In this document: one piece after another, positions 34,877 to 64,000 of the stretch | Numbering within the stretch: position 1 is the stretch's first letter | How the letters are laid out: each line of letters starts with the position of its first letter | Assembly (NCBI GenBank): GCA_963701985.1 | Contig: OY969691.1 | Location: 191,629 to 255,628 of the forward strand | DNA length: 64,000 bases | From: an uncultured Coriobacteriia bacterium | GTDB taxonomy: Bacteria; Actinomycetota; Coriobacteriia; Anaerosomatales; PALSA-660 | Direction: 5' to 3' | Notes under the pieces: generated by a model | What the model was told of the DNA's origin: nothing | Databases searched by the model: none | Seen by the model: the letters and a program-made list of their open reading frames with translations, nothing else | Program-made: the position numbers and the translations under genes

Positions 34877-34900
34877 GACGCGCCGGCAAGCCTGCCTGAG

Positions 34901-35100: not shown

Positions 35101-35119
35101 ACGGCTCCGGAGAAACGAC

Positions 35120-35140
35120 GAGGTCAGGACCCCTGACCTC
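35120..35140 (+). other. Perfect 9-bp hairpin closing the cassette array
   Basis: gaggtcagg-acc-cctgacctc. There is no U-tract on the + strand and only a weak one (gtcgtttctcc) on the - strand. Function unknown. Confidence 0.3.
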
Positions 35141-35220
35141 TACTGACACCATACCACGATCCGGCCGAAAGAACGAGTCCTGTATTCGCCGCGCGAGGGG
35201 CGTATAACACCGTATCCGAG

Positions 35221-35820: not shown

Positions 35821-35831
35821 AGGAGCGGGGC

Positions 35832-36740
35832 GTGCCCGATGAGGACGCGCTGGCCCGGGCCGAGTCGCCGGATGCGGGCCAGGGGCTCGTGACACCCGGG
35901 GACATCGCCGCGTTCCAAGCACGGCTCCTGCGCCTGCTCGAGCGGCGCACCGCCATCTACGCGATGGGTGACAGTACGTCCGTCCCCACGCACGTCGCGG
36001 TCGACCTGTTGCGCTCGGTCTGCTTCGTGCTGGGCATCGATCCCGACGCGCCGGAGATCCCGCCCCGGCTGCTCGACGTCGACCTGGAAGACGAGTACCG
36101 GCGCCGACTCGCCGAGATCGAGCACAAGGTCGAGCTGACCGGTGAGCTCTGGCGCGAGGTGGTCGCGACGATCCCGCCGATTCCGAGCATCGCGCTGCGG
36201 GACACGCTCATCGCCATCGGAGACTTCCCGCGGCACTACGACTTCCGCTCGATGGCGCACGACATCCCCATCGTGTTCGACTACCCGCTCTGCCGGCCGG
36301 TGCCGGAGACGCTTCTGGGTGTGGACTACATCAACGAGTACCTGAGGCGGCTGTTCGTGGAAGCCGACTTCCTGCGGCGCTTCGACGTCGACAGGTGCAT
36401 CCGCGTGCTCGAGCACAGCAGCCCGGACTTCGAGGACCTGCTCGTGAACCTCTACGAGCCGGTCGCGACGAACGCGCTCGGACGGGCGCTTGTCGGCAAG
36501 GATCCCGGCCCGTTGCGGATCTCCGGGGACGAGCGCGCCGAGATCGCGGCGCGCTTGGCACCGTTGGCAGCGGAGCAGCGAGAGCACGCGATGCGCGAGG
36601 CCGTCCTAGCCGCGTGTGACTCCTTCGGCATCGACGACGATGACGCCGTACAGTACGTGTGCGCGTTGGTGCCCGAACTGTTGCCGCGCATCGACGTCGC
36701 GCTGGAGCGGGGCGACCTGCGGGCCGTGTTCGTGGACTGA
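35832..36740 (+). CDS. Conserved hypothetical protein (second gene of the pair)
   Basis: GTG 35832 follows GAGGAGCGGGG, inside track ORF 35790..36740. 302 aa, no motif recognised. Confidence 0.6.
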   Translation: MPDEDALARAESPDAGQGLVTPGDIAAFQARLLRLLERRTAIYAMGDSTSVPTHVAVDLLRSVCFVLGIDPDAPEIPPRLLDVDLEDEYRRRLAEIEHKVELTGELWREVVATIPPIPSIALRDTLIAIGDFPRHYDFRSMAHDIPIVFDYPLCRPVPETLLGVDYINEYLRRLFVEADFLRRFDVDRCIRVLEHSSPDFEDLLVNLYEPVATNALGRALVGKDPGPLRISGDERAEIAARLAPLAAEQREHAMREAVLAACDSFGIDDDDAVQYVCALVPELLPRIDVALERGDLRAVFVD

Positions 36741-36774
36741 GCGTCGGCGGCGGCCGACACGAGAGCGGGGGAGC

Positions 36775-37224
36775 ATGCTGGCCGGCGATCTCGAGTCCTA
36801 CCTGCACGAACACATCCCGCTCTCCGCGGCGATGGGTGCGACGGTCGTGCGCGCGGACGCTTGCGGCGTGGAGCTCGCCGCACCGCTGGCTCCCAACATC
36901 AACCATCGCGATACCGTGTTCGGGGGGAGCGCCTCGGCGCTCGCGATCCTGGCCGCCTGGTCGCTCGTTCACGTCCGGCTGCTGGAGGCGGGGCTCGACT
37001 GCCGCATCGTCATCCAGCGCGAACAGGTCCAGTACGCCGCACCCATGCTCGGAGACTTCGGCGCGCGCTCCCGACTGACCGATCCGGGTGCGTGGGATCG
37101 CTTCCTCCTGACGCTGGGGCGTCGCGGACGTGCGCGGACGTCGGTGTCCTGCTCGCTCGTCAGCGGGGACGTCGAATGCGGGCGCTTCGAGGGGACCTTC
37201 GTGGCGATCGACACGACGAGATGA
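36775..37224 (+). CDS. Hotdog-fold thioesterase-like protein (YiiD C-terminal domain type)
   Basis: ATG 36775 lies inside track ORF 36616..37224. ...HIPLSAAMGATVVRADACGVELAAPLAPNINHRDTVFGGSASALAILAAW... is typical of the putative-thioesterase hotdog domain. Confidence 0.65.
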   Translation: MLAGDLESYLHEHIPLSAAMGATVVRADACGVELAAPLAPNINHRDTVFGGSASALAILAAWSLVHVRLLEAGLDCRIVIQREQVQYAAPMLGDFGARSRLTDPGAWDRFLLTLGRRGRARTSVSCSLVSGDVECGRFEGTFVAIDTTR

Positions 37225-37296
37225 GGCCCGCCTGCGCGCGACTCGTCGAAGCCTGTTGCGGGCATGGATGGACCAGCATGCGAAAGGGGCGGTGAG

Positions 37297-37464
37297 ATGG
37301 CGAAGAACGCGTACATGGTGATCTACTTCCTGGTCATGATCGGCATCATCGTCGGCGCTGACGTTCTGTTCCTCCGGAATCACTTCGTGGCGCGGCTGAT
37401 CGTGAATGTCGCCATCGTCGCGCTGTTCGCCGCCGTCTACTTCGTCTTCCTGAAGAACCTGTGA
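37297..37464 (+). CDS. Small two-TM membrane protein
   Basis: MAKNAYMVIYFLVMIGIIVGADVLFLRNHFVARLIVNVAIVALFAAVYFVFLKNL. Its codon usage is noticeably more AT-rich than that of its neighbours. Start inferred inside ORF 37264..37464. Confidence 0.4.
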   Translation: MAKNAYMVIYFLVMIGIIVGADVLFLRNHFVARLIVNVAIVALFAAVYFVFLKNL

Positions 37465-37509
37465 GCCGGATCGCCGGACGCCGGGCGACCTGACGGGACG
37501 GGTGCGATC

Positions 37510-38022
37510 GTGATCCTCCCCAAAGAGCGCGACCCGCGCTTCATCACCATCCGCCGTGGAGGGACGCTCACGGACGCGAACCATCGGCTCCTGGCTTCGT
37601 GGGCGGCGGCGTGCGCGGAGCACGTCCTGCACCTCTTCGAGTCGGTACAGCCCTCGGACCCGCGGCCCCGCCGGACGATCGCGAGCACTCGGGCGTGGGT
37701 GCGCGGCGAGATGACGATGTCTCAGGCCCGCGCGGCGGCCGGTGCCAACGCCGCGGCGCGAGAGCTGACCGGAGCCGCTCGGTTCGCCGCATACGCCGCC
37801 GGGCAGGCGGTCGCGGTGACGCATGTCCCCGCGCACGAGCTCGGTGCCGCGGCCTACGCGATCAAGGCTGTGCGCGCAGCCGCACCCGATGGCGAGAGCG
37901 AGAGCGCCGGCCGGAGCGAGTGCCGTTGGCAGCGCGAACAGCTTCCCGATGAGATCCGCGCGCTGGTGCTGGACGACGAACGGTTGCGGAACGGGATCTG
38001 CTGGTCGGCGTTCGACTGCTGA
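37510..38022 (+). CDS. Conserved hypothetical protein (possibly immunity-protein-like)
   Basis: 170 aa. RFITIRRGGTLTD...WAAACAEHVL...AHELGAAAYAIKAVRAA...CWSAFDC. I recall close homologues in actinomycetes annotated as hypothetical or immunity-like. The function is not established. Confidence 0.55.
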   Translation: MILPKERDPRFITIRRGGTLTDANHRLLASWAAACAEHVLHLFESVQPSDPRPRRTIASTRAWVRGEMTMSQARAAAGANAAARELTGAARFAAYAAGQAVAVTHVPAHELGAAAYAIKAVRAAAPDGESESAGRSECRWQREQLPDEIRALVLDDERLRNGICWSAFDC

Positions 38023-38063
38023 GGTGCGTCACGGCTCGTCCGTGCCGCGCACCCGGGCAGCCG

Positions 38064-38567
38064 TCAGCCGGTTCGCAGCCGCCGCTGCGTCCTCTTCCAC
38101 ACCCGCCTGAGGATGACCTGTGTGGCGAGGTTCAACCACCACAGCGAAGAGACGGCGTACTCGTGGATCTCCGCGATCTTGCCGTCCTGGAACCGGTAGA
38201 CGTTGCAGTGCCGCATCTCGGTGACGCCGGCCCTCTTGCCCAGGCCGGGGATCCTCTTGCCGAACGAGAACGCGTGGGCGTACTCGACGCAGAGCCTGCC
38301 GGCGCCCCAGAACGAGTCGGTGAGCGTCACGCTCGTCCCCGCGGCGGCGCCTTCCGTCCGGGCTGGCGGCGTGCCCCGCATCGCGAGCGCGACCTCGATG
38401 AACGTGTGGATCTCATCGATGCCGCGGTATCGCATGTCCCCGGGGTTGATGACCCAGACGCAATCGTCGGTCAGGTGTCGCAGCATCCGCCCCGGGTTCT
38501 CGCTGTCGTTCGTGAGTATGTCGATCACCTCGCGAGCGAGCGCTTCATCGGCGATCTCGGCAGTCAT
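38064..38567 (-). CDS. SnoaL-like / NTF2-superfamily protein with a C-terminal hydrophobic helix
   Basis: ATG at 38567 (- strand) is preceded by GAGGAGG, inside track ORF 38064..38819. MTAEIADEALAREVIDILTND...DDCVWVINPGDMRYRGIDEIHTFIE... This is the only minus-strand gene in the central region. Confidence 0.65.
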   Translation of the reverse strand: MTAEIADEALAREVIDILTNDSENPGRMLRHLTDDCVWVINPGDMRYRGIDEIHTFIEVALAMRGTPPARTEGAAAGTSVTLTDSFWGAGRLCVEYAHAFSFGKRIPGLGKRAGVTEMRHCNVYRFQDGKIAEIHEYAVSSLWWLNLATQVILRRVWKRTQRRLRTG

Positions 38568-38735
38568 TCGCGGCCTCCTCGGCCTCGAGTCTCGGCAGGC
38601 TGGCGCCAGGTCATCATGGGGCTTCCGCGGGGTGCCGTCGACCCGACCCCGATGTGGCGACGCACGGCTTCTGAACTGCGACGATGCAAACGGGGACGCT
38701 CTTGTGGTACCCTTCTGCAGGCCCGCGGGTGATGT

Positions 38736-38752
38736 TTCGATACCCCTTGGGT
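38736..38752 (+). repeat. Imperfect direct repeat of the tRNA-Ala 3' half (candidate distal island junction)
   Basis: ttcgatAccccttggGt compares with tRNA 28701-28717 ttcgatCccccttggCt, 15/17 identical in the same orientation. tcca follows 3 nt later. Confidence 0.45.
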
Positions 38753-38871
38753 TGTTCCATAGACGGACCTTTCGCGGAGGTCGGACCGCTCCGGCCCCGT
38801 TCTCGCTGACGATCAGCACGATCGAGCACGATCAGCCGACACGAGGTAGGTGACGCGCGCTGAAGACTCAC

Positions 38872-39930
38872 ATGCGGCCGATCGCGGCCACGCTCCTTGC
38901 GCTCGCTCTGCTCTTCTCCACTTGCTCGCCCACGTTCGCCGACACACTCGCGGCCAAGCGTGCGCAGGCGGCTCAGGTCGAGGCGCAGGTCGCGCAACTC
39001 AACAACAAGGCTGAGCTGGCGACCGAGGCGTACGACGCCGCCACCAGCAAGTACCAGGCGCTGACGGTCAAGGTCGACGCCCTGCGTGCCAGGATCGCCG
39101 CGCTGCAGTCGCGCACCGACACGCTGCAGACGGCGCTCGACACGCGCGCCGACGACATGTACCGCAACAACGACGCGATGGACGTCATCGCGGCCTTGCT
39201 CAGCGCGCACAGCCTCCAGGATCTGCAGACGGACATCGAGATGCTCACTCGCCTGAGCGAGCAGGACGCCTCGACCGTCGACCAGCTGAAGGAAGCGAAG
39301 GCGGAGGCTTCGAAGGCGCGCGACGCGCTCCAGGTCACGCAGGCCTCGGCCCGCACCGAGCAGTTGGCGCGAGCCGCCAGCGCGAAGACCGTGCGCGCCC
39401 AGCTGGCGGCGCAGACGACGCTGCTCGCCGGCATCAACTCTCAGATAAAGAACCTCATCGCCCAGCAGCAGGCGGCGGCCGCGGAGGCCGCGCGTGCGCG
39501 ATATGACGCATGGTTGTCCTCGAGGACACCGGCCGCGCCGGCCTCCGACATCGGCGGCGGTGATCCGCCCACGAGTTCGAAGGGCGCGGCGGCGGTGTAC
39601 TGGGCGAAGACCGCGCTCGGCCGGCCGTATCAGTGGGGCGCCGCCGGGCCGGACAGCTTCGATTGCAGCGGACTGTGCATGTGGGCGTACGCGCACGTGG
39701 GCATATCGCTCCCGCATTACTCCGGCGCGCAGTACGACTCGGGCCCGCACGTGGCGCTGTCGAACTTGGAGCCCGGCGACCTCGTCTTCTTCGGGAATCC
39801 CATCCACCACGTGGGGATGTACATCGGCGGCGGTGAGTTCATCGAGGCGCCGTACACGGGAGCGGACGTACGTATCTCCGAACTCGCTGGACGCATGGGA
39901 GACTACGCCGGCGCCACACGGCCTCAGTAG
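38872..39930 (+). CDS. Secreted NlpC/P60 (C40) peptidoglycan endopeptidase with an N-terminal coiled-coil domain
   Basis: A signal peptide and a long coiled coil are followed by the C-terminal PYQWGAAGPDSFDCSGLCMWAY...GDLVFFGNPIHHVGMYIGGGEFIEAP (Cys-His catalytic pair). Confidence 0.9.
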   Translation: MRPIAATLLALALLFSTCSPTFADTLAAKRAQAAQVEAQVAQLNNKAELATEAYDAATSKYQALTVKVDALRARIAALQSRTDTLQTALDTRADDMYRNNDAMDVIAALLSAHSLQDLQTDIEMLTRLSEQDASTVDQLKEAKAEASKARDALQVTQASARTEQLARAASAKTVRAQLAAQTTLLAGINSQIKNLIAQQQAAAAEAARARYDAWLSSRTPAAPASDIGGGDPPTSSKGAAAVYWAKTALGRPYQWGAAGPDSFDCSGLCMWAYAHVGISLPHYSGAQYDSGPHVALSNLEPGDLVFFGNPIHHVGMYIGGGEFIEAPYTGADVRISELAGRMGDYAGATRPQ

Positions 39931-39956
39931 GCCGGCTCCGGCGGGCGGGGACGGGG

Positions 39957-41177
39957 GTGCCGGTGGGAGCGAGGCGTTCGATCGCTTGGCTCGCGGCGTG
40001 CGCGGTCGCCGTCGCGGCGACCCTGTCGCTCGCCGCGCCCGCGAGTGGGGCGCCGAGCGTCGCCAGCATCAGCCGCTCGATCGCGAGCAAGCAGGCTGAG
40101 GCGGCGAGCGCGTCCGCTCAGCTCACCACGATGCAGTCGCAGCTCACCAGCGCGCTCGCGCAGTTCGACGACGTCAGTCTGCAGCTGAACGCGGCGCGCA
40201 ACGACCTGGCCTCCACGACGAGCCAGTTGAGCACGCTCGACGGTGAGATCGCCGCCCGCTCCCTGATCCTCGACGACCGTGCGGTGGCGATGTACAAGAC
40301 GGGCAACTACGACGTCTTGCAGGCACTGCTCTCTGTGAGCTCGTTCCAGGAACTGCTCACCCGCGTCGACATGCTCGCGTTCATCCAGAAGTCCGACTCC
40401 GACCTGCTCGACGGCCTCGCCACGGCGCGCGAACAGGCGGCCTTCCTGCAGCAGCAGCAGAGCCAGCGCGAGGCCGATCTCGTGGTGCTGCGCCAGCAGG
40501 CGGACGCGCGCAGCGCGGCCGTCGATGCGGCGGTCGCCCGGCAGAGCGCGCTCTTGAAGTCCCTGTCGAGCGACGTCGCGCGCCTCGTGAAGCAGCGTCA
40601 GGCCGCGCAGGCCGCCGAGATCGCCAACGTGCCCGGCGTCCCGTCGAACTTCCAGGCGGACACCCTCGTCTCCGACGCGACGTTCCTCGACGCATCCTCC
40701 ATGTCCGCGGCTCAGGTTCAAGCGTTCCTGAACGCGCAGGCCGGGCCTCTCAAGTCCTATTCGGGTCCGGACCATTCAGGGGCGACCCGGACGGCGGCGC
40801 AGATGATCGCCGACGCGGCGGTGGCGTGGCACATCAACCCCAAGGTGATCCTGGTGACGCTGGAGAAGGAGCAGTCGCTGCTGTCCAGCTCGGGCACGGG
40901 CCAGACGGCCCTCGACTGGGCGATGGGCTGCGGGAAGACGGACTCCGGCACGCTGTATCAGTACCAGGGGTTCGGGAACCAGATCTGGGGCGGCGCGGAG
41001 ATACTCGAAGAGAACCGCTCATTCTGGAGCCCCGGGATATCCATCGACATCGACGGCAAGGCGGTCTACCCGTCGAACGCGTCGACGCAGTCGTTGTACC
41101 GCTACACGCCGCACTTCCACGGCGCCGTGTCCTTCTTCAAGCTGTTCTGGCGCTACTTCGGCGATCCGCTGAAGTAG
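39957..41177 (+). CDS. Secreted coiled-coil protein (N-terminus paralogous to the NlpC/P60 N-terminus) with a C-terminal domain of unknown function
   Basis: A signal peptide is followed by a coiled coil with the same architecture (..DDRAVAMYKTGNYDVLQALLSVSSFQELLTRVDML.. versus ..ADDMYRNNDAMDVIAALLSAHSLQDLQTDIEML..). The ~170-aa C-terminal domain is not recognised. Confidence 0.6.
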   Translation: MPVGARRSIAWLAACAVAVAATLSLAAPASGAPSVASISRSIASKQAEAASASAQLTTMQSQLTSALAQFDDVSLQLNAARNDLASTTSQLSTLDGEIAARSLILDDRAVAMYKTGNYDVLQALLSVSSFQELLTRVDMLAFIQKSDSDLLDGLATAREQAAFLQQQQSQREADLVVLRQQADARSAAVDAAVARQSALLKSLSSDVARLVKQRQAAQAAEIANVPGVPSNFQADTLVSDATFLDASSMSAAQVQAFLNAQAGPLKSYSGPDHSGATRTAAQMIADAAVAWHINPKVILVTLEKEQSLLSSSGTGQTALDWAMGCGKTDSGTLYQYQGFGNQIWGGAEILEENRSFWSPGISIDIDGKAVYPSNASTQSLYRYTPHFHGAVSFFKLFWRYFGDPLK

Positions 41178-41264
41178 GGCCGCTCGGGCCGGCAGGGCCT
41201 GTCGGGCCCGCGGCGGGTATTCGCTATCATGCTGCGGATAGACCGCCGGCTCGGAGGGACTCCC

Positions 41265-43823
41265 GTGACGAAGTACGATCCGCACGCCATCGAGGAGAAG
41301 TGGCAGGCCGCCTGGGAGCGCGAAGGCCTCCACCACGTCGACGAGGACCCCTCGCCGCCCCGCAGAAGTACGTCCTCGAGATGTTCCCGTACCCGTCCGG
41401 CGACATCCACATGGGGCACGTCCGCAACTACACGATCGGCGACGTGATCGCCCGCCACGCCGTCATGAGCGGCTTCAACGTGCTGCATCCGATCGGCTGG
41501 GACGCGTTCGGGCTTCCGGCGGAGAACGCCGCCATCAAGAGCGGCACGCATCCCGCGACGTGGACCTACGCGAACATCGAGACGCAGGCCGCGTCGTTCC
41601 GGCGCATGGGCTTCTCCTACGACTGGGACCGCGTGCGTGCGCACGTGCGACGCCGAGTACTACCGCTGGGGCCAGTGGATCTTCCTGAAGATCTGGGAGC
41701 GGGGTCTCGTCGAGCGGAAGTCGTCGCCGGTGAACTGGTGTCCGGGCTGCACGACCGTGCTCGCCAACGAGCAGGTCATCGGCGAGGGCGTGTGCTGGCG
41801 CTGCAAGTCCGTCGTGGAGAAGCGCGAGCTCGAGCAGTGGTTCCTCAAGATCACCGACTACGCGCCAGGAGCTGCTCGACGATCTCGACCAGCTGCCGGG
41901 ATGGCCCGAGCGCGTCAAGGCGATGCAGGCGAACTGGATCGGCCGCAGCGAGGGCGCCGAGGTCGAGCTTCACGCTCTGCGACGAGGCGGGCGAGCCGAC
42001 CGACGAGCGCATCACGGTCTTCACGACGCGCCCCGACACGCTCTTCGGTTGCTCGTTCTTCCTGCTCGCCCCGGAGCACCCGCTGGTCGGCCGGCTGGTG
42101 GCGGGCACGGAGCACGAGACGCGCGGTCGCGGCGATCGTGGCGGTCGCGGCCAAGGAGACGTCGGTCGAGCGGGCGGCGCGGCGACGCGCGAGAAGCACG
42201 GGGCGTTCACCGGCCGCTACGTCGTCAACCCGGTCAACGGCGAGAAGGTGCCGGTGTGGGTCGCCGACTACGTGCTCATGGAGTACGGCACCGGCGCCGT
42301 GATGGCGGTGCCCTCCGGCGACCAGCGCGACTTCGAGTTCGCGCGGAAGTACGGGCTGCCGATACCGCCGGTCGTGCATCGCACGCGGACGACCGTGCTG
42401 CTCGGGACGCTCGGCGGCGTGCGCGAGCGCGTGCATGGACGACGTCGCCGTGGGACCGTGCCTTCGACGGCGACGGCGTCCTGGTGCAGTCGGGCGAGTT
42501 CACCGGGATGCGCGGCGGCAAAGGCTCCGAGGCGCATGCACGCCGTGACCGCCTGGCTCGACGAGCGCGGGCTGGGCCGCGCGACCGTGAACTTCCGGCT
42601 GCGCGACTGGCTGATCTCCCGCCAGCGCTACTGGGGCAACCCGATACCGGCGATCCACTGTCCGGCGTGCGGCCTCGTGCCGGTGCCGAGCGAGCAGCTG
42701 CCGGTCGTGCTGCCGATGGACGTCGACATCACGAAGGGCGAGACGCTCGCCGACCACCCCGAGTTCTACGAGACCACGTGCCCGCGGTGCGGCGGTCCGG
42801 CGCGGCGCGAGACCGACACGATGGACACGTTCAACGATTCGTCGCTGGTACTACCTGCGCTACTGCGACGCGCGCAACGACCGGCGCCGCGTTCGACCCG
42901 GCAAGGTCGACTACTGGATGCCCGTCGGACCAGTACATCGGCGGCATCGAGCACGCGATCCTGCACCTGCTCTACTCGCGCTTCTTCACGAAGGTGCTGC
43001 GCGACGTCGGGCTACTGCGACTTCGACGAGCCGTTCACCAACCTGCTGACGCAGGGGATGGTGAAGCTCGACGGCGCGACGATGAGCAAGTCGCAAGCGG
43101 CAACGTGGTCGCGCCGGAGGACATGATCGCCCGCTACGGCGCGGACGCGCTGCGTGCATACATCCTGTTCATGGCTCCGCCGGACAAGGACCTCGACTGG
43201 TCGCTACGAGGGTCTCGAGGGCATGTGGCGCTTCCTGAACCGCGTGTGGCGGCTCGTGGAGGACGTGGCGGACGAGGCGCGGGGCGCGAGTGACGCCGCG
43301 GCGCGCGGTTCCGGGCGGGCGCGGCGGAGGAGGCGCTGCGGCGCGCGCTGCACGCGTCGATCGCGAAGTGCGGCGACGACATCGGGCGCTTCCAGTTCAA
43401 CACCGCGCTCTCCGCGATCATGGAGCTCACCAACGCGCTCAACGACTACCGGCGCGACGTGCCGGCCGGCTCGACCCGACGCTGATGCGTGACGCAGCGT
43501 CCGACCTCGTGCTGCTGCTCGCGCCGTTCACGCCGCACCTGGCCGAGGAGCTGTGGCGCGAGGTGCTCGGCGGCGAAGGCTCGGTGCACCGGCAGCCGTG
43601 GCCGTCGTACGATCCGGACGCGCTGGTCGCCGAGATGGTCGAGATGGCCGTGCAGGTCAACGGCAAGGTGCGCGACCGCCTCGAGGTCCGCTCTGCCGCC
43701 ACCGAGGACGAGATCGTGGCTGCGGCGCTCGCCCTCCCGAACGTCGTCGCCCACACGGCCGGCAGGGACGTGCGCAAGGTGCTCGTCGTGCCGGGGAAGC
43801 TCGTGAGCATCGTCGCGGCCTGA
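41265..43823 (+). pseudogene. leuS: Leucyl-tRNA synthetase, interrupted by at least 12 frameshifts (probably sequence errors)
   Basis: GTG 41265 follows GGAGGGA. LeuRS segments (VTKYDPHAIEEKWQ; KYVLEMFPYPSGDIHMGHVRNY; [17 protein letters not shown]; [14 protein letters not shown]; [18 protein letters not shown]; [20 protein letters not shown]; ...GKLVSIVAA) are scattered over all three frames in colinear order. Confidence 0.85.
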
Positions 43824-44011
43824 CCGCGCGGCCGGCCGGATGCGGTCGGGATGCCGTTCGGAAGCGGTCGGGATGTCGTCCGCTCGCGGTCGACTCCCGG
43901 ACCGGCGCCCGGCGCACGATCGCCTTGCTCGAAGGAAGCAGCCGCGGCCAGCGCGCTCGGCCGTGATCGTCGCGAACCGGAAGACCCCCTCGCCGGTGTG
44001 AGGGGGTCTTC

Positions 44012-44677
44012 GTGTTCCGCGAGATGCGTGAGTGGGCCGAGGAGCTGTCGTGCCGGCTCGGGCTCGACACATGGAGCCCGGCCGCGCGACGTCTCGGTGC
44101 CGGGATCGCCATCGTCCTGGTGGCGCTGGCGGCCTGGCGTTGGTGCGGGGGAGGCGCGGCCCCGTCGGGCGTCGCGCCGATGCCGGCGGCGGCCGGGACC
44201 AGTGTCGAGGCCACCGGAGCGCGGCCGGCGGGTCCCGGGACGGCGACCGTGGACGTCGTGGGGGCGGTCCGGCATCCGGGCGTGTATCGCCTCACGGCCG
44301 GATCGCGCGTCGACGACGCCGTGAGCGCGGCCGGCGGCATGCTGGGCAGCGCCGACGCCGCGGCCGTGAACCTGGCGCGCGTTCTCAACGACGGCGAGCA
44401 GATCGTCGTGCCGGTGAAGGGAACGGCGGCGACCGGAGCTCAGGCGGCCGGTGCGGCCGCGTCGGGCGGCGCCGCGGCCGGCGGCGTGGTCGATCTCAAC
44501 ACCGCGACGGTCGAGCAGCTGGACGCGCTGCCGGGCGTGGGGCCGGCCACGGCCAAGAAGATCGTCGACGACCGCACCCGCAACGGCCCGTTCCGCACGG
44601 TGGACGACCTGCTACGCGTGCCCGGGATCGGGCCGAAGAAGCTGGACGCGCTGAAGGACCTCGTGACGGCGAGATGA
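44012..44677 (+). CDS. comEA: Competence protein ComEA (SLBB plus helix-hairpin-helix DNA-binding domains)
   Basis: An N-terminal TM helix is followed by VDVVGAVRHPGVYRLTAGSRVDDAV (SLBB) and the C-terminal DLNTATVEQLDALPGVGPATAKKIVDDR...VPGIGPKKL. Confidence 0.85.
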   Translation: MFREMREWAEELSCRLGLDTWSPAARRLGAGIAIVLVALAAWRWCGGGAAPSGVAPMPAAAGTSVEATGARPAGPGTATVDVVGAVRHPGVYRLTAGSRVDDAVSAAGGMLGSADAAAVNLARVLNDGEQIVVPVKGTAATGAQAAGAAASGGAAAGGVVDLNTATVEQLDALPGVGPATAKKIVDDRTRNGPFRTVDDLLRVPGIGPKKLDALKDLVTAR

Positions 44678-47214
44678 GGGCCCTCTCCCGGGTCGCGGCG
44701 GACTCCGCGGTGCCGCGCCCGTCGGTCTCCCCGTTGTTCTGGGCCGGCGTCGCGTGTTGGGCCGGAGGTTGGGTGGGAACGGAAGCCGCGCTGCGCGCGT
44801 GGTGTACGGGGACGCGGAGCGCGGTCGAGGTCGCGTGGGCCGTCGTGGCGACGGCGACGGCCTGCGGGGTGTTCGCGCGCCGCTCGCGACTCCGGCTCCC
44901 GGCCGCGGCGTTCGCCCTGGGCCTGTGCGTGGCGCTCCTGCATGGCGCGTGGGTGACCGCGAGCGCCACGCGGGCGGCCTCGGCTGGCCCGGCCGAGTGG
45001 CGCGCCGTGGTCGCGGCGGACCCGGTGGCGGGCCCGACGGGCGCGACGGTGGCGCTGCGCCTCCGCGACGGTCCCGCGGCGGGCGCCGTGGCGGTCGTCG
45101 GTTGGCCGGCCGGAGAGCCGCTCCCGGAGTACGGGCGGCTCGTGCGCGTTCGGGCGCGGCTGCGCGTCGTGGACGGCTCGAAGCCGTCGGGCCGCGCCGA
45201 GTTCCGGAGCGGCCGTCTCCTGCGCGGCACGCCCTGGCGGGTGGCCGAGGATGGATGGACGCCGGGTCCTCTGGGTCGGGTGGCGTGCTGGCGTGCGGCG
45301 GCTCTGGGCCGTCTTCGGGGGCTGCGTGGGGACGGTCCGGCGCTCGTGGCGTCGATGCTGTTCGGCGATCGAACGCGCACCAGCGGGTCGCCGGTCGAGG
45401 AGGACGCGAAGGCGGCCGGTGTGGCGTGGCTGCTGAACGCGTCCGGGCTGCATCTAGCGGCGCTCCTTCTCCTGGCGGACCGGATCGCGGCGTTCGTCGG
45501 GCTCGGCCGCAGGGGCAGAGCCGGCGCGTCGATCGGCGTCGGGGCGGTCGTGTGCGCGGCGGCGGGAGCCCGGATCGCGCTCGTGCGCGCGGCGCTCGTC
45601 GCGGCCGCGGCCGTCCTGGCGCGACTCGCCGGACGAAGACGCGACGTGACCGCGGCGGTCGGGGTGGCGGTGCTGGTCCTGGTCTGTCTGGACCCGGCGG
45701 CCGCGGAGGACGTCGGCCTGCTGCTGGGCGTCGTCGCGGTGACGGCGATAGCGCTGTTCGGGAGGCTCGCCGCCGAGTGGCTGCGGCCGATCGCCGGACG
45801 GGCGCTCGCGACCGCGATGGCCGCGTCGGTGGTCGCGCAGGTCGCGGTGGCGCCGATCTCCGCGTCGCTCTTCGGGGCGCTGAACGCACTGGCGCCCGCC
45901 TCGCTCGTGGTTTCCGCGCCTCTCGCGGCGACGGCGGTGGGGCTCGGCGCGTCGGGAGCCGTCGCGGGCGGACGGCTCGGCGCGCCACTCACCGCGCTGG
46001 CGTGCATGTTCGCCCAGGGCGCGGCGACCGTGTGGCACGTGGCGGCCGGCCTCCCGGGGGCCGTCGTGCCCGTCGCCTCGGTACCGTGGTGGGCTTGGGC
46101 GGCCTGGGTGACGGTGCCGGCCCTCGCGTGGTGGCGCTGGCCATCACCTCGTCGCGGACCGCGTCTTCGCGCGATCGTCGCGGTCGTCGTGACGCTCGTC
46201 GCGATCCTGGCGCTCATCCCGCGTCCCGCCGGTCCCGAGATCGTCGTGATGGACGTCGGACAGGGCGACTCCATCCTCGTGCGCGACAGCGGCCACGCGA
46301 TGCTCGTGGACACGGGGCCCGACCCGGTGACGCTGCGTCGCGCCCTGTCTCGTAACGGCGTACGCGCGGTGGACGGTGTCGTCCTCACGCACATCCACGC
46401 CGACCACGTCGGAGGCATCTCGGGACTGCGCGGGGTGGTCGCGGAGCCGGCGTGGATCGGTGTGCCCGACGTGGACGATCGCGGGGTCGACCGCTTGGCG
46501 GCCGCGTGCGCCGGCCGCGCGGGGACCGTGATCAGGCTCCGTCGCGGCATGACCTGGCGCGTGGGCGAGACCACGGTACGTGTGCTGTGGCCTCAGGGAG
46601 GTGAGCGGCAGCTCCAGGCCAACGACACGAGCGTGGTGCTCTTGCTCGCGCGGCACGGCGCGGCGGTGGCGCTGCTGCTCGGCGATGCGGAACAGCGCGC
46701 GCAGCTCGGGGCACTCGATGCGTTCTCCGGGAGGGTGCCGATCATGAAGGCCGCGCATCACGGCAGCGTGAACGGCGTCGTGCCGGAGGCGCTGTCCGCA
46801 TGGTGCCCGCGGGTCGTGCTCATCAGCTGCGGCGCCGGCAATCCGTTCGGTCACCCGCACCGGGCCGCGCTGGAGGCGTACGGCCGGATCGGCGCCCAGA
46901 TCCACCGCACGGACCTCGAGGGCGATCTTGTGTGGGCGGTCGACGCGACCGGCGTGTGCGACAATCGCACGGTCCGGACGGGCGCCGCGGGCGCCCCCGT
47001 GGGAAGGGCCGCATGGCCGCGAGCGATCTCAGCGATCTCAAGCCCGTCTACCTCATCTACGGCTCCGAGGAGCTCCTGCTGGAGAACGCGGTCCGTCGGC
47101 TGCGGGACCGTCTGGCCGCGGTGGCGGACCTCGATTTCAACATGGAGACCTTCGACGGCGAGTCGGCCTCCGCCGACGACATCGTCAACGCCGCCAACAC
47201 CATGCCGTTCATGA
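44674..47214 (+). CDS. comEC: Competence protein ComEC/Rec2 (DUF4131, competence and metallo-beta-lactamase domains); 3' end uncertain
   Basis: ATG 44674 overlaps the comEA stop. A polytopic membrane region is followed by the MBL motif VLTHIHADHVGG...AAHHGS. The frame stays open about 200 nt into holA, so the true stop may be lost. Confidence 0.75.
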   Translation: MRALSRVAADSAVPRPSVSPLFWAGVACWAGGWVGTEAALRAWCTGTRSAVEVAWAVVATATACGVFARRSRLRLPAAAFALGLCVALLHGAWVTASATRAASAGPAEWRAVVAADPVAGPTGATVALRLRDGPAAGAVAVVGWPAGEPLPEYGRLVRVRARLRVVDGSKPSGRAEFRSGRLLRGTPWRVAEDGWTPGPLGRVACWRAAALGRLRGLRGDGPALVASMLFGDRTRTSGSPVEEDAKAAGVAWLLNASGLHLAALLLLADRIAAFVGLGRRGRAGASIGVGAVVCAAAGARIALVRAALVAAAAVLARLAGRRRDVTAAVGVAVLVLVCLDPAAAEDVGLLLGVVAVTAIALFGRLAAEWLRPIAGRALATAMAASVVAQVAVAPISASLFGALNALAPASLVVSAPLAATAVGLGASGAVAGGRLGAPLTALACMFAQGAATVWHVAAGLPGAVVPVASVPWWAWAAWVTVPALAWWRWPSPRRGPRLRAIVAVVVTLVAILALIPRPAGPEIVVMDVGQGDSILVRDSGHAMLVDTGPDPVTLRRALSRNGVRAVDGVVLTHIHADHVGGISGLRGVVAEPAWIGVPDVDDRGVDRLAAACAGRAGTVIRLRRGMTWRVGETTVRVLWPQGGERQLQANDTSVVLLLARHGAAVALLLGDAEQRAQLGALDAFSGRVPIMKAAHHGSVNGVVPEALSAWCPRVVLISCGAGNPFGHPHRAALEAYGRIGAQIHRTDLEGDLVWAVDATGVCDNRTVRTGAAGAPVGRAAWPRAISAISSPSTSSTAPRSSCWRTRSVGCGTVWPRWRTSISTWRPSTASRPPPTTSSTPPTPCRS

Positions 47215-59132: not shown

Positions 59133-60416
59133 GTGAACGTCATAGTCAGCATCGTGGCCGTCGTGTTCGTGCTCGCCGTCCTCGCCTCGACGTCGGTCCT
59201 GTCCGCGGCCGAGAGCGCCGTGCGCACGGTGCCGCGCGTGCGGGCGCGGCGGCTGGCCGAATCGGGCGGCGCCCGGGGTGCGGCGTTCGAGGGGCTGTCG
59301 GAGCGGCCGAGCCGGCTGATGTCCGCGCACGCGGCTGTCCTCGTGTTCGGAGTGGGACTCGGCACCGGCGCCGTCACGTCGGACCTCGCGGTCATCTGGC
59401 AGGGGGTCCCGGTCTGGACGGACGCCTGCGTCGCCTTCCTCGTCGTGTTCGTGCTGGTCTTCGCGTTCGGCGAGGCCCTTCCGCGCGCCGTGGCGCTCTC
59501 GAATCCGGAGGGCGTGGGGCTCGCTTCCGCACGGGCGGCGGGCTGGCTCGCGAGGATCGGCTACCCGATCGCGCGCTCCATCTCGACGCCCCTCGTGCGC
59601 GTCGTCTCGCTCGTGAGCGGGGAGCGCGGCGCCGACGTCCCGTGGCTCGAGCCCGGGGAGGAGCACCGCTTCGGCGCGACGGACGAGGAGGAAGCCAGCC
59701 GGGAGGCCGAGGAGGAGGACCTTATGGAGGCCGTGTCGGGCCTTCACGAGAAGATCGTCCGCGAGATCATGATCCCGCGGACCGACATGGTCGCCATCGA
59801 GGACACAGCGACGTTGGCGGAGACCCTGCGAACGATCACCGCGGCGGGGGTCTCACGAGTGCCGGTGTATCACGAGACGCTGGACGACATACGCGGCATC
59901 CTGTACGCCAAGGACCTGCTGCCGCGGATCGGGGCCGAGGAGACCGGCGTGCTGCCGGCGGATCTGGCCAGGCCCGCGCTGTTCGTGCCGGAGACGAAGC
60001 CCGTCGAGGAGCTTCTGGGGGAGATGCGCCGGCGAACCCACATCGCCATCGTCGCGGACGAATACGGCGGCACGGCGGGCCTCGTCACCATCGAGGATCT
60101 GCTCGAAGAGATCGTGGGCGAGATCTACGACGAGTACGATCCGCTCGTCTCGCTGATCACGGAGCTTCCCGACGGGCGCTACCGCGTCGACGCGAGGCTC
60201 GCGATCGATGAGTTCGACGAGCGCTTCGGCACGTCGCCCGAGGTCGAGGCCGACACCGTCGGCGGGCTGTTCACCGAGCTCGCGGGGCATATCCCCGTGG
60301 TCGGAGAATCCGTCGAGGTCGAAGGCGTCAGGCTGACCGTGGACGACGTGCAGGGCAATCGCGTGAAGCAGCTCATCATCGAGCTGGTCCCGACGGAGGA
60401 GGCGGCCGATGAGTGA
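59133..60416 (+). CDS. CNNM/CorC-family membrane protein (DUF21, CBS pair, CorC_HlyC domains)
   Basis: 427 aa with a four-TM DUF21 domain, a CBS pair ([11 protein letters not shown]...[19 protein letters not shown]) and a C-terminal transporter-associated domain. Intact. Confidence 0.85.
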
Positions 60417-60831
60417 CGTGACCCAGGCGGACCTGGCGCTGCTCGCTTTCGCGCGTGAGGCGCAGGAGAAGGCGTACGCCCCGTACTCCGGGTTCCGCGT
60501 CGGCGCGGCGATATTCGCCGGCGGCGAGATCTTCCAGGGCTGCAACGTGGAGAACGCGGCGTTCGGCGAGAGCCTGTGCGCCGAGCGAGCGGCCGCGGTG
60601 TCCGCGGTGTGCGCGGGCAACACCTTCTTCGACTCGATCGCGGTGGTGGGGGACTCGGAGGACCCCACCACGCCGTGCGGGTCGTGCCGCCAGTTCCTTT
60701 CGGAGTTCAATCCGGAGATGCGCGTGGTGATGGGCGGGCGGCTGGAGTACGTGCGCACCGCGAGCCTCGACGAGCTGCTGCCGGACGCCTTCGTCCGCGG
60801 CTATCTCGACCAGGAGAGTCGCGGCAGGTGA
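60409..60831 (+). CDS. cdd: Cytidine deaminase
   Basis: Contains [19 protein letters not shown] and PCGSCRQ zinc ligands. 140 aa. Confidence 0.9.
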
Positions 60832-61743
60832 GCGGCATCGATCCGCTCGCCGAGGTGCGCAGCGGCTTCGCCGCCCTGGTCGGGCGTCCGAACACGGGCA
60901 AGTCGACGCTCGTGAACGCGCTGGTGGGCAGCAAGGTGGCGATCGTCTCCGACAAGCCGCAGACCACGCGCAATCGGCTTCGCGCCGTCCTCGACCGGCC
61001 GAACGCACAGATCGTGTTCGTCGATACGCCGGGGCTGCACATCCGCACGACGCGCTCGGCGAGCAGCTCAACCGCACCGCGCTCGCCGCGCTCGGCGACG
61101 TGGACGTCGCTTGCCTCGTGATCGACTCGTCGAGCCCGGTGGGCGAGGGCGACCGCTGGGTCGCGCGCCACGTGTCGGCGGCGAAGGCGAAGAAGGTGCT
61201 GGTGATGACGAAGGCCGACCTCCTCTCGCCGGAACCGATAGAGCGCCGCGTCGAGAGGCGGCCGCGCTCGCGGACTTCGACGACGTCGTCGTCCTCTCGG
61301 CGCGGGAGGGCTTCAATCTGGAGGGGCTCGTCGCGGCGGTCACGGGCCTGCTGCCGATGGGACCCCGGTACTTCCCCCCCGGCATGACCACCGACCAGCC
61401 CGACGAGGTGCTCGTCGCGGAGCTCGTGCGCGAGAAGGTCCTGTGGTTCACGCGGGACGAGGTCCCGCACGCCATCGGCGTGGCCGTGGACGAGCTGTCG
61501 GTGGCGGAGCCGGGCGGGACGTCGCGGATCGCGGCCACGATCTACGTCGAGCACGAGAGTCAGCGTGGCATCCTCGTCGGAGCGGGCGGCGCGATGATCA
61601 AGCGCATCGGTGTCAGGGCCCGTCACGACCTCGAGACGGTGCTCGGAACGAAGGTGCGTCTGGACCTGTCGGTGAAGGTGAAGGCGGGATGGCGCCGAGA
61701 CGACGCGGCGATCGAGCGGTTCGGCTATGGAGAGGGGGGCTAG
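60828..61743 (+). pseudogene. era: GTPase Era, about 3 frameshifts
   Basis: GTG 60828 overlaps the cdd stop. [20 protein letters not shown]...DTPGLH | ...[15 protein letters not shown]...MTKADL | ...KH domain VEHESQRGILVGAGGAMIKRIG, read in three frames. Confidence 0.85.
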
Positions 61744-61748
61744 CGCGC

Positions 61749-62435
61749 ATGCGGCGTGACGAGCTCGCGGGCATGATCGACCAGACACTGCTCGACCCCA
61801 CCGTCGGCTATCGCGCGGCCAGGACCTGGCTGGAGCGGCAGCGCGACGCCGGCTTCGCCGCGCTGTGCGTGTCGCCCTTCCTGGTGCCGCTCGCGCGCGA
61901 AGTGCTGCTCGGTTCTCGCACGAAGGTGTGCACCGTCGCGGGGTTTCCGCTCGGATACGCCACCATGGAGGCGAAGGCGGGCGAGGCGCGGCGGTCGGTG
62001 TCGATGGGAGCGCAGGAGATCGACTGCGTGGTGAACGTGGCGCAACTGCTCGAAGGCGACGACGAGTACGTGCTCGCCGATGTCGGCGCGGTCGTGCACG
62101 CGGTGAAGACCGCGAGCCACGGAGGCGCGCTCGTGAAGGTGATCCTGGAGACGGGCTATCTCGACGCCGGATGCCATCGCGCGGGGCGCGTCGCTCGCGG
62201 TGCGGGCGGGCGCGGACTTCGTCAAGACGTCCACCGGGTTCGGTCCGCGCGGCGCGTAGCGTCGAGGATGTCCGCGCGATCCGTGCCGCGGTCGGCGATC
62301 GAGCTCGGGATCAAGGCCGCCGGCGGCATCCGGGACCTCGCCACCGCGCTCGCGATGATCGAGGCCGGCGCGACGCGGATCGGGACGTCCTCCGGGCTCG
62401 AGCTGCTCGCCGAAGCGGAAGGCGGCGCCCGCTGA
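61749..62435 (+). CDS. deoC: Deoxyribose-phosphate aldolase (ORF open, but about 130 nt are garbled by three +1 insertions)
   Basis: IDQTLLDP...CVSPF...KVILETGYL...IKAAGGIRD. The expected ADFVKTSTGFGPRGASVEDVRAI (with the catalytic Lys) is read in frames 1 and 2 between about 62170 and 62298. Confidence 0.8.
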   Translation: MRRDELAGMIDQTLLDPTVGYRAARTWLERQRDAGFAALCVSPFLVPLAREVLLGSRTKVCTVAGFPLGYATMEAKAGEARRSVSMGAQEIDCVVNVAQLLEGDDEYVLADVGAVVHAVKTASHGGALVKVILETGYLDAGCHRAGRVARGAGGRGLRQDVHRVRSARRVASRMSARSVPRSAIELGIKAAGGIRDLATALAMIEAGATRIGTSSGLELLAEAEGGAR

Positions 62436-62436
62436 C

Positions 62437-63191
62437 GTGCCCGCGTACCCGCTCCGCGCCCTCGTGCTGCGCAAGACGAAGCTGGGCGAGGCCGACCTCA
62501 TCCTGACGCTGCTCGCGGCCGACGGGCGCCAGGTCAGCGCGGTCGCGAAGGGGGCGCGGAAGCCGAAGAGCCGCTTCGGGGCGCGGGTCGAGCCCTTCAC
62601 GGTCCTCGACCTGCTGCTCCACACCGGACGCACCCTCGAGGTGGTCGCCGAGGCGGAGACGGTCTCGACCCACGACGCGATCCGCGGCGACTACGACCGT
62701 TCGACGGCGGCGGCCGTCATCGCGGACTTGTCGACAGGGTCTCCGTCGAGGGCCAGGCGGAGCCGCAGCTCTTCGAGATGGCCACCGTCACGCTGGACGT
62801 GATCGAGACCGCGCCGTGCGACTCGATGAGGGTGGTCGTGCTCGGCGTTCCTGGTGAAGGCGCTCGCGATGCAGGGCTACCGGCCGACACTCGACGCCTG
62901 CGCGTCGTGCGCGTCAGCCGTGAGCGGCGCGTCTTCGGCTTCTCAGCGGCGGCGGGCGGCGTGGTCTGCGACGCCTGCGCGTCGGACGAGCCGAGCGCCT
63001 TCCCGATCACCGAAGGGGCGCGCGCGGTGCTGCGCGCGCTGCTGCGCGCGCGGATGGCGGAGGTCCCCGGGCTCGGCGTGCCGGCGCCGCTGCAGGACGA
63101 GGTCCTTGGCGTGCTGCGCGGCTACCTCGCGTACCACGTGCCGGCCCGGCTGCGCGCTCTCGATTTCTACGCCGCACAGACCGCGAGCTGA
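62437..63191 (+). pseudogene. recO: DNA repair protein RecO, at least 3 frameshifts
   Basis: ALVLRKTKLGEADLILTLLAADGRQVSAVAKGARKPKSRF... | ...FLVKALAMQGYRPTLDACASC... | ...GGVVCDACAS...LRALDFY, read in different frames. Confidence 0.85.
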
Positions 63192-63239
63192 TCGCCGGGC
63201 GAGCGGAGCCGCACACGCCCGTGTGGGAAGATGTGCCGC

Positions 63240-63716
63240 ATGGAAACCATCTCGTTCGTGTCGACGCTGCGACGCTCGGACTACGTGCGCGTCGCCGCCA
63301 TCCTCATGGTCACGCACCCGCTCAGCGTGGTCGTGATGGCCGCCGGGCCGGTGCTGTGGGCCGCCGGCGCGCTCGCGGGATCCGGCGTCGTCGCACAGTT
63401 CGGACGCACGATGTCGTGGCTGGTCATCGCCGTCCCGGTCGGTTCCGTGCTCATCGGTTCGTATGCGGCGTATCGGCCGTCCGCGGGCGAGATGTACGAG
63501 ACGGCGCTGTGGGAGTTCTCGCCGGACGGCGTGTCGGTGCACCAGCACGTGAACGACGCCTTCGCGCCCTGGGAGGATTTCATGCGCTGGCGGCGCGCGG
63601 CCGGCTGTTATCTGCTGCTCACGGGGCCGCAGCGCTATGTCATCATCCCGATGCGTGACGTGCCCGCCGAGCGGCGCGCGGAGTTCGAGCAGATGCTGAC
63701 GAGGCACGTCAGGTAG
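63240..63716 (+). CDS. YcxB-like membrane protein
   Basis: Two TM helices are followed by ...WEDFMRWRRAAGCYLLLTGPQRYVIIPMRDVPAE..., the YcxB-family C-terminal pattern. ATG 63231 is an alternative start. Confidence 0.6.
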   Translation: METISFVSTLRRSDYVRVAAILMVTHPLSVVVMAAGPVLWAAGALAGSGVVAQFGRTMSWLVIAVPVGSVLIGSYAAYRPSAGEMYETALWEFSPDGVSVHQHVNDAFAPWEDFMRWRRAAGCYLLLTGPQRYVIIPMRDVPAERRAEFEQMLTRHVR

Positions 63717-63802
63717 AATGACCGAGCCCGCCGGACGTTCGTGATCGGAGCCGAAGTCGTGCGGCGGCGCACCGTCCGCCGGAAGCCGAGGATGGGTCAG
63801 AC

Positions 63803-64000
63803 GTGAAGCCGTTTTCCTTCCAGGACATCATCCTGGCGCTGTCGCGCTACTGGGCCGACCAGGGCTGCGTGCTCCTGCAGCCGTACGACACCGAGGTCGG
63901 CGCGGGGACGTTCCACCCGTACACCACGCTGCGCGCGCTCGGACCCGACGCCGTGGCGCTGCGCATACGTGCAGCCGTCGCGCCGGCCGACCGACGGCCG
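63803..64000 (+). pseudogene. glyQ: Glycyl-tRNA synthetase alpha subunit, 5' part (runs off window; one frameshift near 63950)
   Basis: GTG 63803. [44 protein letters not shown] is followed by [15 protein letters not shown] where [14 protein letters not shown] is expected. Confidence 0.8.

Follow-up and report, generated by a model that had tools for sequence, protein, structure and literature searches.

The roughly 60 frameshifts that break essential genes from about 41.3 kb onward in the stretch of 64,000 nucleotides analyzed here (hereafter, the window) are false: they are assembly errors of a metagenome-derived contig and not biology. Frameshift-aware alignment to a close relative and comparison with independent contigs of the same strain placed about 60 frame-breaking indels between positions 41,319 and ~63,200. 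The first-pass annotation had described an abrupt switch from intact to damaged genes at about 41.3 kb, and the base-level comparison confirms it. The first mismatch with the same-strain contigs is at 41319, 54 nt into leuS; the window differs from these contigs at 99 positions over the 11,269 covered bases after that point and at 0 of the 14,876 covered bases before it (Fisher p = 5e-37). From 41,319 on, the contig is probably a consensus of mixed templates, made up of the organism's own lineage (lineage A) and one or several related lineages.

The same-strain reference consists of Logan contigs assembled independently from the sequencing runs ERR11593882 and ERR10755942. With 100% identity to the window over ~19 kb, the contigs of both runs belong to the same strain, and the two independent assemblies concur at every position they share. 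They do not contain the 25 bases inserted in the window, and their HrcA, DnaJ and MtaB are intact (339, 371 and 464 aa, respectively); the lesions are thus errors of the window's contig, in agreement with the initial opinion that they reflect a consensus artefact and not functional biology. The Logan contigs stop inside leuS, lepA, phoH and also mreB, and none was obtained for most of leuS and lepA or for 56.5-64 kb. The final 390 nt of contig L081 are backed by this contig only and code for the odd residues YDPDR (YDWDR in the relatives); they may be imperfect themselves. Exact look-ups with the DnaJ and DgkA of the window hit no recorded contig. A search with the repaired LepA retrieved nothing above 91% identity, and so failed to recover the true LepA or the second template.

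Lesions were counted with a custom frameshift-aware protein-to-DNA alignment against the genes of L085, a JGI contig that was the closest relative found (LepA 91% identical). The counts for rpsT, era, the deoC-like gene, recO, corC and cdd come from the more distant relatives L002, L004 and L005. The aligner over-calls at ~55% identity, as a control on relative L004 produced 3 spurious shifts in mtaB; the HD, deoC and recO counts, which depend on distant relatives only, are therefore approximate. The counts for hrcA, dnaJ, mtaB and phoH were checked base by base against the same-strain contigs. A reference-free frame plot of third-position G+C missed much of the damage, close compensating shifts being invisible at its 240-nt resolution. 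Two long-read MAGs with weak DnaJ hits (L079 and L080) were considered as further examples, but their hits were to distant paralogues and uninformative.

The clean part of the window (1..41318) provides context and a control. It carries hydrogenase genes, mreBCD-pbp2-rodA, rng, rplU-rpmA-obg-proB-proA and others. Each open reading frame with a Pfam hit in the first 41 kb covers practically the entire profile (MreB 2-326/327, MreC, PBP2, RodA, RNase G, L21, Obg, ProB and others). In addition, the stretches covered by Logan contigs L083/84, L088/89, L092 and L081/82 (1083-2161, 5294-12826, 16246-19029 and 37839-41318; 14,876 nt) are 100% identical to them. These two observations bear out the earlier statement that no frameshift is found in the first 41 kb. 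Synteny with the relative L093 delimits a lineage-specific segment of 16.3 kb between EamA and leuS (24973..41264), which has a lower G+C content, many open reading frames without Pfam hit and a tRNA-Ala (28648-28723). In L093, LytR_C-RsfS-EamA are found directly upstream of leuS, and their orthologues lie at 22458-24936 in the window; the upstream neighbour of leuS in the relatives differs from that of the window. The damaged zone starts at the right edge of this segment.

Within the damaged zone, the frameshift counts proposed from the sequence alone were recovered almost gene for gene. The leuS gene (41265..43823, forward strand) contains about 16 events in the alignment to LeuS of L085 (844 aa; 81% identical once repaired), located around 41354/41364, 41636, 41865, 41968, 42134, 42177, 42437, 42447, 42541, 42845, 42927, 43015, 43097, 43204, 43316 and 43471. 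The G inserted at 41354 and the A inserted at 41364 are missing from Logan contigs L081 and L082, and the G at 41637 is also missing from L081. From the 3' end of leuS to the 3' end of rpsT (43641..48092, forward strand), the window is free of differences, being 100% identical to L090 (4452 nt) and L091; this patch comprises comEA (44012-44677), comEC (~44668-47214) and holA (47013-48011), all on the forward strand and without frameshifts relative to L085. The rpsT gene (48020..48282, reverse strand) has two single-base insertions (~48116 and ~48231) in the alignment to the S20 protein of L085 (84% identity). The lepA gene (48477..50289, forward strand), whose matches hop between frames, has 12 events at 48492, 48637, 48872, 49032 (a deletion), 49142, 49314, 49333, 49418, 49434, 49885, 50102 and 50232/50234. 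Its repaired protein is 92.5% identical to the LepA of L085, and comparison with Logan L086 confirmed the final insertion together with 6 substitutions. The next patch, 50242-52317, is nearly clean: it differs from L086/L087 by 2 substitutions (51282 and 51922) and includes an intact hemW (50289..51584, forward strand) with 1 difference.

Damage resumes in hrcA (51743..52766, forward strand), where the base-level comparison with L086/L087 reveals four single-base insertions (52318, 52341, 52462 and 52537), all four of them stacks of synonymous wobble bases. In dnaJ (52825..53943, forward strand), the alignment to L085 and the same-strain contigs locate insertions at 53091, 53171 and 53198 together with 10 substitutions (53030-53607); as these insertions sum to +3, the reading frame stays open, yet 35 codons are out of frame. 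An rsmE-like methyltransferase gene (54023..54523, forward strand) shows no frameshift in the base-level same-strain comparison, its differences being 2 substitutions and 3 nt inserted in frame (54175-54178). The mtaB gene (54513..55915, forward strand) has 6-7 frameshift events and 7 substitutions, with insertions at 54729, 54790, 55245, 55532-55533, 55540, 55598 and 55659 relative to L086/L087, which encode the intact protein. In phoH (55902..56947, forward strand), frame hops and the same-strain comparison indicate 3 frameshift events, with insertions at 56124 and 56218 and an insertion/deletion pair at 56185/56187, alongside 30 substitutions in 55925-56452 (~6%). The region 56967..58388 (forward strand), aligned to relatives, encodes an HD-domain protein and YbeY. 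The former has 1-3 events (at least one shift at ~57425, possibly also at 57102 and 57154), and its Pfam HD match in the downstream frame is truncated at position 52 of the profile; ybeY has a single insertion at ~57968. Protein alignment to relatives found no frameshifts in dgkA, corC and cdd (58403..60831, forward strand). Finally, era, the deoC-like aldolase gene and recO (60822..63191, forward strand) could be compared only with relatives of 60-67% identity, so that positions are approximate: two one-base deletions in era (~61041 and ~61253), three insertions in the deoC-like gene (~62166, ~62257 and ~62300; net +3) and three events in recO (~62731, ~62844 and ~62932). In sum, no frameshifts were found in comEA, comEC, holA, hemW, rsmE and dgkA relative to L085, nor in corC and cdd relative to more distant relatives; with the exception of rsmE, these are the genes that had been listed as intact.

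Taken at face value, so many disrupted genes could suggest real pseudogenisation, either through genome decay or with functional second copies elsewhere. Frameshifted genes in a row are indeed reminiscent of pseudogene-rich decaying genomes such as those of Mycobacterium leprae or recently host-restricted symbionts. In those genomes, the lesions are real, preferentially affect dispensable genes and include deletions and stop codons. Here, on the contrary, about 60 lesions hit presumably single-copy essential genes (leuS, lepA, rpsT, era, dnaJ), translation genes among them, next to intact non-essential genes, while codon structure and third-position G+C are preserved and the same locus is intact in two independent assemblies of the same strain. 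The multiple disruption of the essential leuS (16), lepA (12), rpsT (2) and era (2) would be incompatible with viability if these genes are present in single copy. We consequently regard pseudogenisation as hardly credible; leuS, lepA, dnaJ, era and the other broken genes are almost certainly intact in the organism itself. Programmed frameshifting was also rejected, as it would involve dozens of sites that have no common motifs and are absent from the same strain.

The nature of the indels is informative about their source. Where the true sequence is known, 25 bases are inserted and 1 is deleted, and 16 of the 19 single insertions are isolated bases outside homopolymers. This largely sustains the early description of the lesions as single-base insertions outside homopolymers, except that both lesions of era, and a few of those in leuS, lepA and recO, are one-base deletions. 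Sixteen of the 19 single insertions adjoin a wobble base and would give a synonymous codon if they replaced it (random expectation 33-40%; p ~1e-4 or below); the remaining 3 correspond to conservative V/M, M/I and L/V alternatives. The pattern is as if both alleles of a SNP had been retained. The inserted bases match the wobble alleles of the available relatives no better (25/76) than the lineage A base does (30/76), a comparison of little information as third positions are saturated at such distance.

Residual indels are a familiar problem of long-read (Nanopore and PacBio) assemblies and MAGs, in which single-base indels in long metagenomic contigs break open reading frames and inflate pseudogene counts. 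The proovframe preprint (10.1101/2021.08.23.457338) reportedly deals with this same problem. The window belongs to what appears to be a long-read metagenome contig (a single contig of 1.84 Mb), and its lesions are indels; frameshifts in nanopore assemblies have been attributed to residual indels, which truncate predicted proteins and call for re-polishing or frameshift-aware annotation (PMC9262707). One possibility is therefore ordinary consensus noise, that is, random indels surviving in an unpolished or poorly covered stretch. Nevertheless, long-read errors are described in the literature as concentrated in homopolymers, and they extend genome-wide with coverage. The marks of homopolymer noise (homopolymer indels, common deletions, spread along the contig) are absent from the window: 16/19 single insertions are isolated, 25 of the 26 indel bases are insertions, and the lesions occupy patches of one zone, with insertions that are associated with wobble positions having a synonymous alternative and with accompanying substitutions that bear the alleles of relatives. 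An unpolished stretch would have given random, homopolymer-centred and deletion-rich errors throughout, hemW and comEC included, and low coverage would have damaged both the 4.4 kb and the 2 kb stretches that are perfect or nearly so within the zone. Ordinary noise thus seems unlikely. Two causes had been put forward in the first-pass annotation, an unpolished or poorly covered long-read stretch and a mis-polished region such as a strain mixture. The evidence favors the mixture, through the wobble alleles, the alleles of relatives and the base-perfect patches, over the former.

The substitutions in the window resemble real divergence. Of 73 substitutions, 41 fall on the third codon base (p = 5e-5) and 34 are non-synonymous; 56% are G<->C exchanges, a spectrum expected from true divergence in a 70% G+C genome. 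At the 31 phoH sites that differ from lineage A, the base of the window is found in L085 at 22, in L002 at 19, and in L004 and L005 at 18 each, and 9 of the 10 dnaJ substitutions carry the allele of relatives L002 and L003. In these two genes, the window's allele is thus common to relatives at 60-90% of the differing sites, whereas random errors would agree with the relatives' base in less than ~10% of cases. Reference-guided polishers (Homopolish, proovframe) were considered as the source of these alleles and set aside: such programs would remove indels, not create them, and would require close references.

The spectrum of the substitutions and the coincidence of the abrupt boundary with a structural breakpoint could also be explained by a chimeric contig, which after 41.3 kb would continue into another, thinly covered strain with real substitutions and low-coverage indels. 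Yet, the clean patches beyond the boundary (43641-48092 and hemW) match the same lineage A as the sequence before it, and in a strain diverged by 2-6% in leuS and phoH, the fast-evolving comEC and hemW would differ as well. Moreover, low-coverage indels are not expected to fall at wobble sites as synonymous alternatives. This scenario is accordingly quite improbable.

The probable mixed-template consensus may have arisen as follows. A pile-up or alignment would have combined molecules of lineage A, reproduced by the Logan contigs, with molecules of at least one related lineage. Where the templates differed by a single base, the consensus would most often have kept the lineage A base; at some sites it would have switched to the foreign base, resulting in a substitution with the relatives' allele, and at others both bases would have been retained side by side, producing a one-base insertion and hence a frameshift. 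We infer the consensus step or program responsible, as well as the identity of the second template: it may have been a column-wise or likelihood consensus that rated indels cheaper than mismatches, so that a SNP was laid out as 'G-' over '-C' and both columns survived. Wherever the foreign template was identical to lineage A or did not align, the consensus would be base-perfect lineage A. The onset of the zone at the start of leuS would then correspond to the synteny breakpoint: as the upstream 16.3 kb are lineage-specific, foreign molecules would have had no alignment target there.

Several observations run against the mixture. Local conservation is indeed higher around the damaged sites (mean identity to relatives 0.69 vs 0.59, p = 1e-6), which could suggest that conserved genes recruited foreign reads. 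However, the first 25 kb are clean and syntenic with the relatives, they include genes whose conservation equals or exceeds that of lepA (obg, rpmA and mreB, with MreB at 85-95% identity to relatives), and their checked parts are 100% lineage A: the Logan-covered parts of the conserved mreB-rodA and rpmA-obg regions, including the 3' part of mreB, are base-perfect. Not all shared regions are thus affected, and plain recruitment by conserved genes cannot explain the restriction of the damage to this zone. Inside the zone, too, conservation is an imperfect predictor of damage and per-gene values do not separate damaged from undamaged genes: frameshifts occur in mtaB and the HD protein (58% identity to L085) but not in cdd (78% to L002) or dgkA (74% to L085). 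Recruitment by conserved genes was therefore rejected as a sufficient cause. Finally, 34 non-synonymous substitutions out of 73 are high for a closely related strain.

It is conceivable, if rather doubtful, that the second template was a co-occurring sister strain without the 16.3 kb segment upstream of leuS or with a different version of it. The patchy 2-6% divergence to the right of the segment would then record recombination tracts, a real mosaic carried along when the segment was gained or lost. Although the frameshifts would remain artefacts, their positions would trace genuine microdiversity beside a genomic island of such an uncultured, Coriobacteriia-like population. A mixed-template consensus also has a parallel in the errors (haplotype switching and indels) at heterozygous or strain-variable sites of collapsed diploid or mixed-strain assemblies, in which two similar templates enter one consensus. 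Such a consensus is a mosaic of both alleles with small indels at variant sites, and the regions where the templates agree are perfect. The window differs in two respects: the alleles of the second template are similar to those of other species of the family, and only part of the shared synteny is affected. We found no paper describing the side-by-side allele pattern.

These lesions have no biological weight, and their worth lies in quality control. The warning that annotation and pseudogene counts from the damaged half are unreliable holds. These 23 kb of a public contig of 1.84 Mb give rise to about a dozen false pseudogenes and truncated or chimeric proteins, as well as to scrambled proteins that look intact (dnaJ and the deoC-like gene, with their net +3 insertions) and to amino-acid changes imported from other lineages. 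The combination of non-homopolymer insertions that double a wobble position with a synonymous alternative and switches to the family-consensus base provides a reference-free way to tell mixture-induced consensus errors from ordinary long-read noise, and can mark contig regions in need of strain-aware re-polishing. Faulty proteins of this kind are already present in protein databases as singletons.

The frameshifts that break housekeeping genes from 41,319 onward are not a biological feature. Several proteins of the window recur in the Logan assemblies of the public runs ERR11593882 and ERR10755942, from which eleven independently assembled contigs of the same strain were retrieved. Before 41319, these contigs show 0 differences from the window in 14,876 nt (1083-2161, 5294-12826, 16246-19029 and 37839-41318); after it, 99 are found in 11,269 nt (p = 5e-37). 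All ORFs of the first 41 kb with a Pfam hit match their profile end to end (including MreB, MreC, PBP2, RodA, RNase G, L21, Obg, ProB and an RsbU-type phosphatase). The undamaged first 41 kb and the abrupt switch at about 41.3 kb described in the first-pass annotation are therefore both borne out, and the switch is real and sharp: two same-strain contigs, L081 and L082, diverge from 41319 with one substitution, followed by an extra G (41354) and an extra A (41364) in the window, differences beyond 41364 being covered by L081 only. Two others, L086 and L087, span 50184-56473 and agree throughout their overlap; relative to L086, which covers the full stretch, the window has 54 substitutions and 22 extra bases and lacks one base. 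HemW, HrcA (339 aa), DnaJ (371 aa), RsmE and MtaB (464 aa) are all intact in both contigs. Together with the 0 versus 99 differences, these intact genes show that the lesions are errors of the window's contig, as had been proposed, and the possibility that the broken genes are real pseudogenes is excluded by the intact locus of the same strain. The same-strain contigs cover about half of the zone, leaving out most of leuS, lepA and the region past 56.5 kb. Support for the final 390 nt of L081 comes from one contig, with odd residues: its positions 3610-3852 (window 41602-41845) encode YDPDR and FLTMWE instead of the YDWDR and FLK(I/F)WE of the window and relatives. Near its end, L081 may follow a variant or erroneous path and is a weaker reference there.

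The extent of the damage was assessed by tblastn of ORFs from related loci against the window, and with a purpose-written frameshift-tolerant protein-to-DNA aligner using the genes of L085, the closest relative found. With tblastn, the pieces of LeuS, LepA, HrcA, MtaB, PhoH, the HD protein, Era and RecO are colinear but switch frames; DnaJ, HemW, ComEC, HolA, YbeY, DgkA, CorC and Cdd match in a single frame. Against L085, 16 frameshift events are found in leuS, 12 in lepA, 4 in hrcA, 3 in dnaJ, 7 in mtaB, 3 in phoH, 3 in the HD protein and 1 in ybeY, nearly all of them +1 insertions in the window, and none in comEA, comEC, holA, hemW, rsmE or dgkA. Alignment to more distant relatives gives 2 events in rpsT, 2 in era (both one-base deletions), 3 in a deoC-like gene and 3 in recO, with corC and cdd in intact frame; since a control on L004, another relative, showed the aligner to report excess shifts at about 55% identity, counts resting solely on distant relatives are approximate. 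The total, about 60 events within 22 kb, very closely matches the per-gene list made at first reading, whose seven intact genes (comEA, comEC, holA, hemW, dgkA, corC and cdd) indeed have no frameshift. dnaJ (52825-53943) and the deoC-like gene (61641-62429) carry three insertions apiece that restore the frame; both are annotated as intact proteins, yet an internal segment is scrambled in each, and the scrambled DnaJ is present in public protein collections. The zone is of value as a quality-control case with a recognizable error signature.

This signature is dominated by insertions, as had been noticed: inserted bases outnumber deleted ones 25 to 1. It is not that of homopolymer noise, since of the 19 single insertions 16 stand as isolated bases outside homopolymers. 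Nanopore frameshifts have been blamed on homopolymers (PMC9262707), whereas the insertions in the window are mostly isolated bases. In the frames of the intact genes, 16/19 single insertions directly flank the third base of a codon and, taken as replacements, leave the codon synonymous (e.g. GTG/GTC, GGC/GGG, TCG/TCC, AGC/AGT), against a chance rate of 33-40% (p ~1e-4 or lower); the remaining three give V/M, M/I and L/V alternatives. Each insertion therefore looks as if both variants of a SNP had been retained next to each other. The third codon position also holds 41 of the 73 substitutions (p = 5e-5); of all 73, 56% are G<->C, as expected from real divergence at about 90% third-position G+C. 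Where phoH differs from the same-strain sequence, the window base is found in four relatives at 22, 19, 18 and 18 of 31 sites; two relatives carry it at 9/10 such sites in dnaJ, and the single differences in hrcA and hemW likewise have the relatives' base. Random errors would be expected to match relatives in a few per cent of cases. Rates so far above this show that the damaged patches contain true alleles from a related lineage, mixed into the sequence of the strain itself, with insertions where the two differ. Of the two causes initially envisaged, the mis-polished mixture is thus favored by the wobble association and the relatives' alleles. Generic noise from an unpolished or poorly covered long-read stretch is contradicted by both and by perfect patches such as 43641-48092, which lies within the damaged half and is 100% identical to same-strain contigs. 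comEA, comEC, holA and hemW, 100% identical to the strain found before the boundary, contradict a switch of the contig to a different strain with thin coverage.

A consensus built from mixed templates is the most economical reading. Where a similar second template was aligned, the consensus would keep the strain's own base, switch to the other or keep both; without such a template, or with an identical one, it would come out perfect. In long-read error models where indels predominate, and in some consensus schemes of the partial-order or column-wise type, an indel costs less than a mismatch, and under such scoring both alleles would be kept. A literature search found no published account of side-by-side alleles, and a search for the second template's sequence did not recover it. 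The same-strain contigs end at window positions 5294/5645, 41454/41845, 43641/43652, 48092, 50184/50244 and 56344/56473; in both runs, the breaks of these short-read-style contigs fall within mreB, leuS, rpsT/lepA and phoH. Such breaks in conserved genes are expected if co-sampled related genomes share exact k-mers there, and thus give indirect support for co-occurring relatives.

The onset coincides with a synteny breakpoint. In L093, another relative, LytR_C, RsfS and EamA genes lie immediately upstream of leuS; their orthologues are at 22458-24936 in the window, which makes 24973-41264 (16.3 kb) lineage-specific, and in L085 leuS is preceded by a different gene again. Since these neighbors differ, the start of leuS is a breakpoint rightward of which alone foreign molecules could have aligned, which would produce a sharp edge. 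This accounts for the edge but not for the clean, syntenic first 25 kb. MreB is 85-95% identical to that of relatives, yet the 3' part of mreB, obg and rpmA are base-perfect; the damaged sites sit in more conserved sequence, but damaged and undamaged genes cannot be told apart by how conserved they are. It is possible that the relative's reads had their own contig upstream and none in the zone, or that assembler collapse was confined to the zone. The second template could also be a sister strain differing from the window's own strain only in recombination tracts beside the variable segment.

The 16.3 kb segment has lower G+C (64-67%), a strongly negative AT skew, many ORFs without Pfam hits and a tRNA-Ala(GGC) at 28648-28723, and may be a variable region or island. 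It encodes RsbU/SpoIIE-type phosphatases with STAS/HATPase partner-switching genes, VanZ, DUF6323/DUF6179, an Imm5-like immunity protein, and NlpC/P60 and PcsB-like hydrolases. Directly past the tRNA, about 6 kb (28961-34876) hold ORFs without Pfam match; consecutive same-frame ORFs split by apparent stops are seen at 30090-30761, 30837-31256 and 31257-31460, followed by VanZ (31473-32048).

The window as a whole has a G+C content of about 70%; its closest gene matches are uncultured Coriobacteriia (DnaJ 69% and LepA 91% identical to MAG/metagenome sequences). Exact matches of its proteins assign it to one 1,839,548-bp contig in NCBI and ENA, which has the look of a metagenome assembly from long reads. 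It opens with a hydrogenase cluster (6-3224) comprising an NAD-binding/Fe-S subunit, an Oxidored_q6 small subunit (1215-1961) and a NiFe large subunit (1962-3224). At 3292-4563, outside the coverage of the same-strain contigs, ORFs for an Fe-S-motif protein and a RadC-like JAB protein share a frame with one stop (3838-3840) between them, and are probably two neighboring genes rather than one disrupted gene. Ribosomal protein L21 (15752-16375) has about 100 extra C-terminal residues, consisting of Ala/Pro/Lys repeats with AAPAK-like units.
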